From Candidatus Omnitrophota bacterium (lineage in GTDB: Bacteria; Omnitrophota; Gorgyraeia; JAFGHF01): a DNA stretch of 57,733 nucleotides. A program made the translations under genes and the position numbers. The DNA lies in contig JAZDHS010000032.1 of NCBI GenBank assembly GCA_043805735.1, positions 1 through 57,733 of the forward strand, in the 5' to 3' direction. The notes beneath the pieces are model-generated. The model did no database searches. It was not told the DNA's origin and saw nothing but the letters and a program-made list of their open reading frames with translations. Of this stretch, positions 41,301 through 41,757 are shown piece by piece (the first letter of the stretch is position 1; each line of letters opens with the position of its first letter).

Positions 41301-41634
41301 GCGCGCGGGCCTCTTTACTGTAAGGGCACCCGGCGTCACGAAATGGTTCATAGAGAAGTGGTTTAGGCGCAACGATTTTAATAAAGGTGCGAAAACCCTT
41401 GAAGGGTGTCAGATGATAGGCCTGATTGGCAGGATAGAATTCGAGCATCGCGCCGTCTTTATCGCGCACACCGAAGGAGCTGACGCACTGCCCACGGTTG
41501 ACATAAAACAGCCACAGCGGTGTGCCGTATAAACCGGCGATGCCGGGAAAGAAGCTGGAAAAGGCTTTGGCAAAATTGTAATTTTCAATTACAAAATCGC
41601 CCGATTTCTCCAGCCGATACTGCACTTTCTTCAC
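38371..41634 (-). CDS. Large (1087 aa) GH94-like (alpha/alpha)6-barrel glycoside phosphorylase/hydrolase superfamily protein, specificity unknown
   Basis: C-terminal pattern [24 protein letters not shown]...[16 protein letters not shown]...[19 protein letters not shown] resembles the catalytic barrel of GH94/GH15-type enzymes. The stop is 3 nt upstream of the malQ start. The GTG start lies inside TIR element copy B. Confidence 0.5.
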   Translation of the reverse strand: [1087 protein letters not shown]

Positions 41635-41757
41635 CCCGCCCTTCCTTTCCTTGTATTGCCAACGAAAATATTGCTTGTAGTGAATATTATACGCATTGCC
41701 TAAACCTTTAAGCCTGCCTTCGCTCGATATGTATTGCTTGTTCAGGAAGGGCGGGGT
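41633..41757 (-). repeat. TIR element copy B (125 bp)
   Basis: ACCCCGCCCTTCC (41633-41645) and GGAAGGGCGGGGT (41745-41757) are perfect inverted repeats. Confidence 0.85.

Follow-up and report, generated by a model that had tools for sequence, protein, structure and literature searches.

A repeated element at three gene starts

The window analysed here, a 57,733-nt contig of a Candidatus Omnitrophota bacterium, carries about 50 genes, three of which bear a copy of the same short element. Six exact occurrences of the 13-mer ACCCCGCCCTTCC are present in the window (chance expectation 0.08); they form three inverted pairs that delimit copy A (23361-23448), copy B (41633-41757) and copy C (54943-55069). 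Allowing up to three mismatches to the 13-mer across the window gave no excess of degenerate arms over shuffled sequences besides the six known arms. Each copy lies in sense orientation to a minus-strand gene: a receiver gene (A), a GH94-like gene (B) and an adaptor gene (C), which are unrelated to one another. The arms are separated by 62 nt (A), 99 nt (B) and 101 nt (C); the interiors can be aligned with a mean column identity of 77%, about 40 nt being missing from copy A. An initial sequence-only reading had described these arms, spacers, the gap in copy A, the common orientation and the unrelated hosts, and our analysis agrees with it on each. The features of the three copies are listed below.

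Copy B
41768..41771 (-): native SD GGAG of the GH94-like gene, read from the sequence 6 nt before the native ATG
41759..41761 (-): native ATG, now the start of the short uORF1
41757..41760 (-): upstream 4-nt direct repeat TGAA
41745..41756 (-): gene-distal 12-bp inverted repeat CCCCGCCCTTCC (gene sense), coding N-P-A-L-P after the native Met
41646..41744 (-): AT-rich interior of 99 nt, common to A and C; no nuclease-coding remnant found
41634..41645 (-): gene-proximal 12-bp inverted repeat GGAAGGGCGGGG, SD-like, after GGAAA; its last G is GTG base 1
41630..41633 (-): downstream TGAA; G(41634) plus TG is the GTG of ORF 38371..41634
41708..41761 (-): uORF1, MNPALPEQAIHIERRQA then stop, beginning at the native ATG
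41631..41696 (-): in-element ORF2, MRIIFTTSNIFVGNTRKGRAG then stop, ending on the GTGA stop/start overlap
Copy A
23529..23501: promoter-like site
23450..23452 (-): native ATG of the receiver gene
23448..23451 (-): upstream TGAA repeat
23436..23447 (-): gene-distal 12-bp inverted repeat
23374..23435 (-): interior of 62 nt, having lost about 40 nt by comparison with B and C
23362..23373 (-): gene-proximal 12-bp inverted repeat, SD-like
23358..23361 (-): downstream TGAA; GTG 23360-23362 starts ORF 22979..23362 (MKKKVLLVDDE..)
23405..23452 (-): uORF1, MNPALPNTSNACKIN then stop
23359..23424 (-): in-element ORF2, MHVKLTESNIFVGNDRKGRAG then stop, ending on the GTGA overlap
Copy C
55080..55085 (-): native SD AGGAGG, 6 nt before the native ATG and directly after the upstream gene's stop
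55069..55073 (-): native ATG (55071-55073) and upstream TGAA (55069-55072)
55057..55068 (-): gene-distal 12-bp inverted repeat
54956..55056 (-): interior of 101 nt, holding ATG 55004-55006
54944..54955 (-): gene-proximal 12-bp inverted repeat, read as G-R-A-G codons of the adaptor ORF
54940..54943 (-): degenerate downstream repeat TTAA
55038..55073 (-): uORF1, MNPALPKTSNV then stop

Read in gene sense, the copies share one layout: an SD, an A followed by TGAA, the perfect 12-bp terminal inverted repeats CCCCGCCCTTCC and GGAAGGGCGGGG enclosing the interior (present in all three copies), and a second TGAA. TGAA stands on both sides of the 12-bp repeats in copies A and B, and the pair is TGAA/TTAA in copy C. 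The 13th and 14th bases of the apparent arms are complementary ends of this 4-nt flanking repeat. Between the flanking repeats the copies measure 86, 123 and 125 bp, and their only internal ORFs have 11-22 codons.

The conserved upstream GATGAA contains the host gene's native start codon, and the element therefore sits within the start of the ORF, not in the 5' UTR where it had initially been placed. An SD precedes the native ATG in copy B (GGAG) and copy C (AGGAGG), and copy A has only a weak GGAAGAG. Since ATGAA precedes each copy, the native ATG is retained upstream, and the last G of the element together with the repeat creates a new GTG. As the sequence-only reading had noted, the proximal arm carries an SD-like GGAAGG and in two copies supplies a GTG, which opens the ORFs of copies A and B listed above. 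In copy B, the TGA at 41631-41633 is at the same time the stop of the in-element ORF2. Copy C has no GTG at its proximal end; there the change of TGA to TTA has removed the stop and fused the element frame to the adaptor gene, and ATG 55004-55006 is the sole in-frame ATG before the membrane helix of the adaptor. For this copy, we could reconstruct no pre-insertion sequence in which the native ATG and the adaptor gene share a frame.

The distal arm of copy B is complementary to its SD-like proximal arm, and in RNA folds of all three copies the arms pair with each other (-35.9, -44.7 and -43.4 kcal/mol; z = -3.2 to -4.5), in keeping with the proposal that the distal arm can lock the SD and start codon into a 12-14-bp G:C helix. 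The earlier remark that no described RNA family was recognised also holds: a search against Rfam 15 gave no element match at the gathering score over the whole window, and none at E <= 1 in 41500-42000. A tRNA scan found no tRNA. Promoter-like sites all lie outside the elements, and a role of the elements as outward promoters was dropped for this reason.

Flanking repeats, empty sites and a nuclease-encoding form

A genome scan found four further copies in three Candidatus Omnitrophota MAGs; it returned only these four loci because its pattern demanded an internal ATTGC. A metagenome scan with the bare 12-mers yielded at least 126 unique copies, and 105 of the 126 listed share the same architecture. 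This sample consists of copies with perfect 12-bp arms, and decayed copies are thus under-sampled. These numbers, together with the empty orthologous sites described below, bear out the earlier suggestion of a dispersed element of mobile origin. A Candidatus Azambacteria locus shows the same plan with other ends: ATGAA followed by TCCCACACATACC on the left, and GGTATGTGTGGGA followed by TGAATATC on the right. Scalindua loci (L142-L145) whose left end starts with CCCCTCAC were set aside, since the downstream homology continues and their right boundary is indistinct.

The sequence-only reading had seen no target-site duplication. The larger sample contradicts this, as the left and right flanks of the metagenome copies listed covary (Fisher p = 2.4e-10). 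Among the listed copies, at least 126 in number, the flank pairs are ATGAA/TGAA (71), GTGAA/TGAA (11) and ATGAG/TGAG (9), with ATGGA/TGGA (2), GTGAG/TGAG (2) and GTTGA/TTGA (1) being rarer. The repeat is thus TGAA, or TGAG/TGGA when the second codon of the host differs, and left flanks other than TGAA are matched on the right in 13 of 20 cases. Where the flanks differ, the right one is mostly TGAA; TGAG/TGAG and TGGA/TGGA pairs are also present. This excess of TGAA on the right fits a cleavage tetranucleotide carried by the element, in the style of IS200/IS605, equally as well as a true duplication.

Empty orthologous sites read ATGAAT, and empty and occupied orthologues are colinear once the element and 4 nt are removed (L045 and L110, for instance, are 89% identical). 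For the three insertions in the window, a near-identical empty site is absent, the closest GH94 homologue being 58% identical.

The element also exists in a full-length form of about 275-300 bp, which consists of one ORF for a single-domain GIY-YIG nuclease of 88-100 aa. The ends of this ORF are themselves the inverted repeats, which encode the first codons MNPALP or MNPAPP and the last codons GRAG or GGAG. Full-length copies were read as DNA at L062/L105, L125 (two), L129 and L131, with variant repeats in L062, L125, L129 and L131; the protein P0014 (MNPALP...GRAG) has termini coded by the repeat type of the window. The Pfam GIY-YIG match (E = 8.7e-17) spans residues 1-67 of 87, and the protein consists of just this catalytic domain. 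Within Rnf, Mrp/Mbh and sugar-nucleotide operons, the nuclease ORF overlaps each neighbouring gene by 4 nt. The arms of the full-length form differ between subfamilies only as compensated pairs, and nuclease remnants are retained in the short copies L009, L051, L102, L104 and L013. In the window, a tblastn search for a nuclease gene or remnant matched only the MNPALP codons of the arms. We also searched about 840 kb of loci for arms without a partner and for inverted arm pairs spaced by up to 460 bp. No transposase was found; apart from tandem or mini copies, such repeats enclose the nuclease ORF alone.

Gene-start location and proposed translation of the interrupted genes

The orientation relative to the host gene is fixed across copies. 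In 99 of 105 listed copies, the ORF that begins at the new GTG either has 60 codons or more or runs off the contig. In the metagenome copies listed, a median of 18 nt separates the native ATG from the in-frame stop upstream of it, and an upstream gene ends in the TGA of the ATGA itself at 40 of 97 sites. About 92 different host genes (at least 90) are occupied, and they are functionally unrelated.

A location of this kind could in part result from selection alone in very compact genomes. Such genomes (an upstream gene ends within 300 nt at 90 of 97 sites, with a median gap of 13.5 nt) would also suit an ordinary MITE of a DDE-type IS preferring TGAA, with the start-codon siting a matter of survivorship and the GIY-YIG ORF a passenger. 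Terminal inverted repeats, a short flanking repeat, many copies and varied length are likewise what such a MITE would show. However, the loci searched hold no transposase ORF between such repeats, and the sole coding full-length form is a nuclease whose termini are the repeats. Survivorship of a MITE with symmetric ends does not require the fixed orientation. The loci also contain 3535 ATGAR pentamers, and those occupied are nearly all gene starts, while in tandem copies the later one sits on the GTGAA created by the earlier copy. We therefore regard an ordinary DDE-type MITE as very unlikely.

The length of the element, modulo 3, equals 1 in 67 of 105 listed copies. Of these 67, 50 keep the through-frame open as far as the GTGA overlap, whereas shuffled interiors give 10.4 +/- 3.0 such copies (maximum 21). 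This excess of frames that stay open between the native ATG and the GTG-overlapping TGA points to termination-reinitiation coupling, by which the interrupted gene would probably still be translatable from its replacement RBS and GTG. The host RBS and ATG would now drive the ORF of the element. In return, the host would receive a GTG made of the terminal G and the repeated TG, with the proximal arm (GGAAGG or GGAGG) at SD distance from it, and the stop TGA of the element ORF overlapping this GTG as GTGA would give a classic termination-reinitiation layout. A ribosome arriving from the native ATG would open the arm-arm helix and then pass to the GTG; without it, the helix would mask the SD and GTG, and on this proposal the host gene remains tied to its native initiation signals. 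A 12-14-bp G:C helix that starts 4 nt past the native ATG may also hinder initiation there. The ORF that starts at the native ATG is just 11-17 codons long in each of the three window copies, and the GTGA is reached solely by a second ORF further inside; coupling would thus be less direct in these copies.

An open frame far above chance is also what would be expected if the short copies were small-protein genes, with peptides of 20-40 aa (MNPALP...KGRAG) as the selected product, and in orthologous groups G1, G2 and G5 the interior diverges no faster than host coding sequence. Beyond the repeat-coded ends, however, the peptides of different genomes have neither sequence nor length in common. 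Early stops occur in about half of the copies, among them all three window copies, and in groups G4 and G6 the same start codon holds different interiors in related genomes. We give hardly any credence to a selected peptide.

The sequence-only reading had favoured a translational-control cassette. Here the arm-arm helix would be a switch evolved under host selection, for instance a thermosensor or a helicase- or protein-dependent device, with mobility serving merely for dispersal. The stable helix including the SD and GTG in every copy, the perfect conservation of the arms in more than 100 copies, the fixed orientation and the lack of a known RNA family that would otherwise claim the sequence are all in line with such a switch. 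The arm conservation, however, is imposed by the search pattern: older and tandem copies, found without the perfect-arm requirement, carry uncompensated arm mutations. The interiors, where a sensor would be expected, are similar within one genome and differ between genomes (69 singleton clusters), the host genes share no function, and the arms are the coding ends of the nuclease ORF in the full-length form. The open frame ending on GTGA would neutralise the helix instead of using it. Judging from the sequences, this open frame is the conserved feature, one that would preserve expression and not regulate it. A host-selected control cassette thus seems to us improbable.

A reading that takes in the anatomy, flanking repeat, empty sites, nuclease-coding partner, fixed orientation, start-codon location and frame conservation, all observed directly, is that the window copies derive, by internal deletion, from a GIY-YIG nuclease element that sits on start codons and would hand translation back to the host via GTGA, and that they are MITE-like and non-autonomous. 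We consider this reading likely to be correct. The nuclease would move the element, probably through hairpin-directed cleavage of single-stranded DNA as in the Ssn nucleases discussed below, and the start-codon location would reflect either targeting or selection.

More tentatively, and with some reserve, we suggest that these elements may represent an unrecognised class of prokaryotic transposable elements, with a minimal GIY-YIG protein (Ssn/Slx1-like) as their sole protein, start-site-specific through hairpin-guided cleavage of single-stranded DNA, and translationally transparent. In such a class, the distal arm would act as an anti-SD mimic that pairs in trans with the SD of the target gene. 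This pairing would rebuild the arm-arm duplex of the right end of the element, with cleavage after (A)TGAA. The element would use the host RBS and ATG to translate its own ORF, returning an SD and GTG through the GTGA overlap.

Significance and comparison with known systems

Insertion at start codons with translational pay-back appears to be undescribed in the searchable literature. In searchable full texts, which include few subscription journals, we met with no account of GIY-YIG elements that sit on start codons, and the Ssn paper alone comes close. If our reading is true, this is selfish DNA that lives on start codons, uses host initiation signals and compensates by built-in translational coupling, following a logic comparable to that of introns and inteins but at translation initiation. 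If the elements do form an unrecognised class, they would join introns and inteins as a third means by which selfish DNA can reside within a gene without destroying it. Annotation would be affected as well, as some gene starts in Omnitrophota and at least one Patescibacteria lineage would carry an element, with GTG starts, spurious small ORFs and nuclease-host fusions as consequences. The architecture would also offer a natural test bed for termination-reinitiation and structure-gated translation.

The closest known system is Ssn/NTS, in which Ssn nucleases are associated with NTS/SRM hairpin repeats (Chenal et al. 2025, Nat Commun, PMC11893778). Ssn is a single-domain GIY-YIG protein of about 94 aa whose gene lies between GC-rich hairpin repeats with a CCCCGC-type stem; Ssn genomes contain many scattered gene-less repeat copies, and the authors remark on the IS-like architecture (PMC11893778). 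The enzymes bind single-stranded DNA hairpins and cut beside them, also when the hairpin is split across two oligonucleotides (PMC11893778). The Omnitrophota element similarly combines a small single-domain GIY-YIG gene bracketed by GC-rich hairpin-forming repeats, again with a CCCCGC-type stem, with gene-less copies, and P0014, the Omnitrophota nuclease, shares 39% identity with SRM-flanked Ssn-type homologues from Azospirillum and Sinorhizobium. Several features set the two apart. The two arms described here are the two ends of the gene and form one long-range hairpin, unlike the local hairpin on each side in Ssn; the arms are coding sequence; insertion is evidenced by the 4-nt flanking repeat and empty sites; and the copies occupy start codons, where they make a GTGA overlap. 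The Ssn paper (PMC11893778) is silent on coding arms, a long-range hairpin, a flanking repeat, empty sites and start-codon siting. The C-terminal half of the nuclease is also unlike that of the SRM-flanked type. The SRM consensus HGTCWYN(0-2)YYVSBRHN(0-5)WNVSBRGN(0-2)RNCYNB has no match in the window, L125, L131 or L134 and one unrelated match in L129, and the same expression does recover the repeats flanking the rhizobial and Azospirillum genes. If true, our reading provides direct genomic insertion evidence, in the form of empty sites and flanking repeats, for single-domain GIY-YIG/hairpin (Ssn) systems. It would also supply natural cut-site candidates (TGAA beside a CCCCGC-type stem), which are relevant to Ssn enzymes as proposed programmable single-stranded DNA nucleases.

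The nearest solved relatives are the UPF0213, or prokaryotic Slx1-like, proteins (PDB 1zg2 and 1ywl; E = 2.7e-8), which have the same minimal domain, and the Omnitrophota nuclease scores at least as well against UPF0213 structures as against the Ssn-type homologue. This clade is regarded as comprising vertically inherited repair proteins, not selfish genes (PMC1564403). Unlike the Omnitrophota element, its members have not been described with inverted repeats or insertion behaviour, and our reading, if true, revises the view of bacterial Slx1-like minimal GIY-YIG proteins as only vertically inherited repair enzymes. Free-standing homing genes of the T4 Seg and I-TevI type likewise are selfish GIY-YIG genes wedged at host genes and often translationally coupled. 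Homing enzymes, however, have a C-terminal DNA-binding domain and one cognate site and act through recombination, in contrast to the bare catalytic domain and the many host genes found here.

Like the Omnitrophota element, Neisseria Correia elements and Rickettsia palindromic elements are short inverted-repeat elements that are co-transcribed and tolerated in or beside coding regions, where they may form RNA hairpins, and the Rickettsia elements insert in frame. To our knowledge, neither type is restricted to start codons, rebuilds an SD and start with a stop/start overlap, or has a nuclease-coding full-length form.

With IS200/IS605 and its PATE and REP/RAYT derivatives, the Omnitrophota element shares minimal size, hairpin ends, non-autonomous forms reduced to a hairpin, a fixed orientation and, apparently, strand-specific insertion beside a fixed tetranucleotide. 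Unlike IS200/IS605, the enzyme is a GIY-YIG nuclease and not a Y1 HUH transposase TnpA, the repeats are terminal and mutually complementary and not subterminal hairpins, and the flanking tetranucleotides usually match. The sequence-only reading had further distinguished the element from a plain MITE, a view that stands in one part and not in the other. The window copies are non-autonomous deletion derivatives: they are short, lack a complete protein gene, have terminal repeats, show a flanking duplication with empty sites in the family, and have a longer coding element, all as in MITEs. Their parent, however, carries a GIY-YIG nuclease gene, and it is this coding partner, in place of a DDE-type transposase, that separates them from MITEs as commonly defined.

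Inverted-repeat elements at start codons

Six occurrences of the 13-mer ACCCCGCCCTTCC, where 0.08 would be expected, form three inverted pairs in the window (23361/23436, 41633/41745 and 54943/55057). These are the terminal arms of three elements in sense orientation to minus-strand genes, the distal arm lying towards the host gene's native ATG and the proximal arm towards the rest of its coding sequence.

23361-23448, minus strand: copy A, at the receiver gene
41633-41757, minus strand: copy B, at the GH94-like gene
54943-55069, minus strand: copy C, at the RND adaptor gene

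An earlier sequence-only reading had described these arms and pairs, and the same letters were read back from the window; allowing up to three mismatches in the 13-mer, no further window copies rose above background. Its alignable interiors were reproduced (mean column identity 77%), as was the gap of ~40 nt in copy A. RNA folding paired arm with arm in all three copies, as that reading had proposed (-35.9, -44.7 and -43.4 kcal/mol for A, B and C; z = -3.2 to -4.5), and an Rfam search of the whole window gave no match on the elements, in agreement with its failure to recognize a described RNA family in them.

In gene sense, on the minus strand, copies A and B read SD..ATGAA-CCCCGCCCTTCC...GGAAAGGAAGGGCGGGG-TGAAGAAA, and the right end of copy C carries -TTAACG in place of TGAAGAAA. 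The earlier view that there is no target-site duplication overlooked a 4-nt direct repeat, TGAA, on either side of the arms. The inverted repeat proper is 12 bp rather than the 13-14 bp first described, its supposed 13th and 14th bases being the complementary ends of this direct repeat. The upstream TGAA forms part of an ATG in every window copy. This ATG is the native start codon of the host gene, preceded by an SD at normal spacing in B (GGAG-N6) and C (AGGAGG-N6) and, in A, by a weak GGAAGAG 8 nt upstream and nothing stronger. At the other end of copies A and B, the last G of the element joins the downstream repeat to form a GTG, with which the receiver gene (22979..23362) and the GH94-like gene (38371..41634) respectively begin, the two cases that the sequence-only reading had recognized. 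Homologues of the GH94-like protein begin at the residue equivalent to this new start. Promoter-like sites lie outside the elements, which are therefore probably co-transcribed with their host genes.

The window's proteins find their best matches in Omnitrophota. Of its 50 ORFs with 100 aa or more, 46 are encoded by the minus strand. Sixteen of 50 window ORFs start with [AG]TGA[AG], so that most potential element sites are unoccupied.

Insertion sites across metagenomes

Scanning genomes revealed copies in three Candidatus Omnitrophota MAGs, and a metagenome scan for the bare 12-mers, requiring perfect arms 41-101 nt apart, returned at least 120 stretches. The metagenome matches listed, the genome-scan loci and the window together comprise at least 126 unique elements, with taxonomy taken from MAG titles and source names. 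The same architecture is present in 105 of 126 unique elements among the matches listed, to which all counts of copies and sites in the table and the following two paragraphs also refer. About ten further matches belong to an unrelated, longer palindrome family.

Flanking sequences of element copies among the matches listed (5' flank / 3' flank: copies)
ATGAA / TGAA: 71
GTGAA / TGAA: 11
ATGAG / TGAG: 9
ATGAG / TGAA: 4
ATGGA / TGGA: 2
GTGAG / TGAG: 2
GTTGA / TTGA: 1

Left and right flanks covary (Fisher p = 2.4e-10), with 13 of 20 non-TGAA left flanks matched on the right, which supports the reading that the 4-nt repeat may be a true duplication. Where the flanks disagree, the right one is mostly TGAA; this would fit a target tetranucleotide paired with an element-borne one, in the IS200/IS605 manner, as well as it fits a duplication.

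In 99 of 105 copies the ORF that begins at the new GTG is 60 codons or longer or runs off the contig. The nearest upstream in-frame stop lies a median of 18 nt from the native ATG; 40 of 97 sites use the TGA within ATGA as the stop of the upstream gene, and at 50 more that gene ends within a median of 13.5 nt. The four bases inside the proximal arm are all purine (GAAA, GGAA..) in 96/105 copies, those inside the distal arm in 1/105. The orientation of the element relative to its host gene is fixed, which extends beyond the window the single orientation noted earlier.

A comparison with orthologous loci lacking the element, suggested by the sequence-only reading, was made by deleting each element together with 4 nt and searching the remaining sequence against all fetched loci (L-numbers). 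Colinear empty sites were found for L045:3017 (in L110, 89% identity over 301 nt), L071 (L040), L089 (L107, L088, L100), L076 (L107, L088), L006 (L093) and L020 (L097). The empty site reads ..ATGAAT.. and the occupied one ATGAA[element]TGAAT.., demonstrating that the element is an insertion.

In groups G4 and G6, unrelated interiors occupy the same start codon in related genomes, and ~6% of copies among the matches listed are inserted right at a GTGAA that an older copy, now decayed, had made; both observations point to repeated use of one type of site. The restriction to start codons could arise from targeting, for example if the anti-SD-like distal arm pairs with the target SD, mimicking the element's right end. 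Tandem insertions fit this possibility, and we take the 3535 ATGAR pentamers in the loci, of which the occupied ones are nearly all gene starts, to favor some targeting. Selection in very compact genomes is another possible source of the restriction.

The 12-mer also occurs within a different, longer GC-rich palindromic repeat, e.g. GGCGGGGCTGAAG-CCCCGCCCTTCC... (L028:1185-1587, with repeats ~390 bp apart, L033, L086, L023, L031, L043/L108, L115 and L119). None of these lies at a start codon, and they probably come from other phyla. Mini versions with 23-26 nt between the arms form simple hairpins of ~47-50 bp (L045:4089-4136, L013:1334-1381, L069:4562-4609, L089:4562-4612 and L068:5528-5577). 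Four of these have ATGAA/TGAA or ATGAG/TGAG flanks, and the one in L045 has TAAA/TAAA; several carry a mutation in one arm.

A GIY-YIG nuclease and its reading frame

The window holds no nuclease gene. Loci L062 and L105 carry a 284-bp version, flanked like the short copies, whose interior encodes MHYVYLLKS..YIGYT..RLNEHN..YYEAY.., a Pfam GIY-YIG match (E = 8.7e-17). The closest of 291 homologues from a protein search are 88-111 aa long, several labelled Candidatus Omnitrophica; they start MNPAPP, MNPALP or MSPAPQ and finish GGAG or GRAG. The opening and closing codons of the nuclease ORF are therefore the inverted repeats themselves. One homologue, P0014 (MNPALPEMHYVYIL...CIGRAG), represents the window's repeat type at full length. 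The nuclease genes overlap each neighbor gene by 4 nt and sit in essential-looking operons: sugar-nucleotide (L125, two copies), Rnf (L129) and Mrp/Mbh (L131). Arm variants between subfamilies are compensated pairs without exception: CCCCGCCCCTCC / GGAGGGGCGGGG, CCCAGCCCCTCC / GGAGGGGCTGGG, CCCCGCACCTTC / GAAGGTGCGGGG and TCCCGCACCTC / GAGGTGCGGGA, the last ending in an A that makes the new start ATG. Some short copies keep N- or C-terminal nuclease codons (L009, L051, L102, L104, L013), and interiors are mostly unrelated between metagenome contigs yet common within one genome (the window's three; two in L001), which suggests that internal deletion produces the short forms and that these go on to spread in trans.

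Among the matches listed, element length modulo 3 equals 1 in 67 of 105 copies, the other two classes holding 19 each, and 50 of these 67 have no stop from the native ATG to the TGA of the downstream repeat (10.4 +/- 3.0 expected on shuffling interiors, maximum 21 in 1000 trials). Their peptides read MNPALPK....KGRAG, and the stop overlaps the new start as G-TGA-A, a type of overlap that is standard in translationally coupled genes. Five other listed copies have no stop and are in frame with the host gene, giving N-terminal fusions.

In the window copies this through-frame plan has decayed. The ORF from the native ATG ends after 11-17 codons, and each copy has an internal ATG after AAAGG that opens a 21-codon ORF (M.[IV]KL..SNIFVGN..KGRAG) ending on GTGA. 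In copy C, TGA has become TTA, so the element frame continues into the adaptor gene, whose sole in-frame ATG (55006) lies within the element. N-termini of adaptor homologues consist of Met, basic residues and then a hydrophobic helix. The element in copy C probably now supplies the N-terminal codons of this gene.

An exhaustive search returned 5579 cluster representatives at E <= 0.001; a cutoff of E <= 1e-10 leaves 334. Candidatus Azambacteria show the same plan with other ends, ATGAA|TCCCACACATACCTTACAC...GTGTAAGGTATGTGTGGGA|TGAATATC, at the start of a PilM-domain (PF11104) gene. A Patescibacteria element (L140:1181-1470 and L141) is intergenic, with 19-20-bp arms (CCCCTCACATGGAAATTAT) and an 8-bp direct repeat, CCAGGTAG, an insertion signature unlike the TGAA/start-codon type, and a Nitrospirae copy with CCCCGCACCTTT arms lies between priA and a yicC-like gene. 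Start-codon insertion is thus a trait that some lineages within a larger group show.

In several 50%-identity cluster representatives (P0398, P0412, P0433, P0434, P0438, P0448), the GIY-YIG ORF is joined, with no intervening stop, to a type IV pilin-like protein. FTLIE follows immediately on the ..GAG that the repeat encodes, and the resulting G|FTLIE junction is of the prepilin-peptidase type, the nuclease taking the place of the leader peptide. The DNA of one such fusion (L150:456-760) has arms CCCCGCACCATT/AATGGTGCGGGG, flanked by ATGA to the left and by TTTACT to the right.

Proposed mechanism and relation to known systems

The element places its own SD-like arm and GTG in the initiation region and keeps the native RBS and ATG upstream. 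Ribosomes starting at the native ATG would enter the distal arm (codons 2-6) and melt the helix; in through-frame copies, termination on GTGA would be followed by reinitiation, or by a fresh 30S at the exposed SD, to yield the host protein. If upstream translation ceased, the helix would hide SD and GTG, so host expression would stay under native signals.

For copy B these signals would include a long structured leader. This stretch of ~150 nt (41762-41912, minus strand) is preceded by a promoter-like site (TTTACA-16-TATAAT, 41941..41914) and followed by the native ATG. It has an unusually stable fold (-60.7 kcal/mol, z = -4.06) and three GGATAG motifs, gave no Rfam match at E <= 1, and may be an undescribed cis-regulatory RNA. 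The window's only Rfam match is a c-di-AMP riboswitch (RF00379; 44175-44314, minus strand; 52.8 bits, E = 1.9e-9) upstream of a 723-aa ORF (41975..44146).

With respect to movement, the element's only protein is a bare GIY-YIG domain, whose closest characterized relatives are the Ssn nucleases. These single-domain proteins of ~94 aa show specific cleavage of single-stranded DNA next to a hairpin repeat but none of dsDNA or RNA, remain active when the hairpin is divided between two oligonucleotides, and are encoded by genes bracketed by hairpin repeats (PMC11893778). If the element moved in a similar way, its arms would pair in single-stranded DNA and one strand would be cut by the nuclease at the TGAA beside the stem; this would account for the fixed orientation.

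The nearest solved structures, 1zg2 and 1ywl, are among the minimal Slx1-like bacterial proteins that a 2006 GIY-YIG survey regarded as vertically inherited repair enzymes (PMC1564403). The searchable literature, in its incomplete coverage, gave no account of start-codon insertion, arms encoding nuclease termini or the GTGA pay-back. The element has no Y1 transposase, which rules out IS200/IS605 membership; a homing endonuclease gene is ruled out by the lack of a DNA-binding domain and by the ~92 different host genes occupied among the matches listed. The sequence-only reading preferred a translational-control cassette to a plain MITE: structurally the element does qualify as a MITE, but its coding partner is a GIY-YIG nuclease and no known transposase.

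Canonical CGTCATCCCCGCGAAGGCGGGGATCCAG hairpins flank homologues on plasmids of Azospirillum and Sinorhizobium, and the protein from Azospirillum is 39% identical to P0014. On Azospirillum lipoferum plasmid AZO_p3 (L149, ~890-1410), an Ssn-type GIY-YIG gene lies between sufB and sufC, with a convergent pair of canonical SRM hairpins, CGTCATCCCCGCGAAGGCGGGGATCCAG, on each side. The element resembles these Ssn/SRM systems, but its repeats miss the SRM consensus and its repeat-gene geometry differs.
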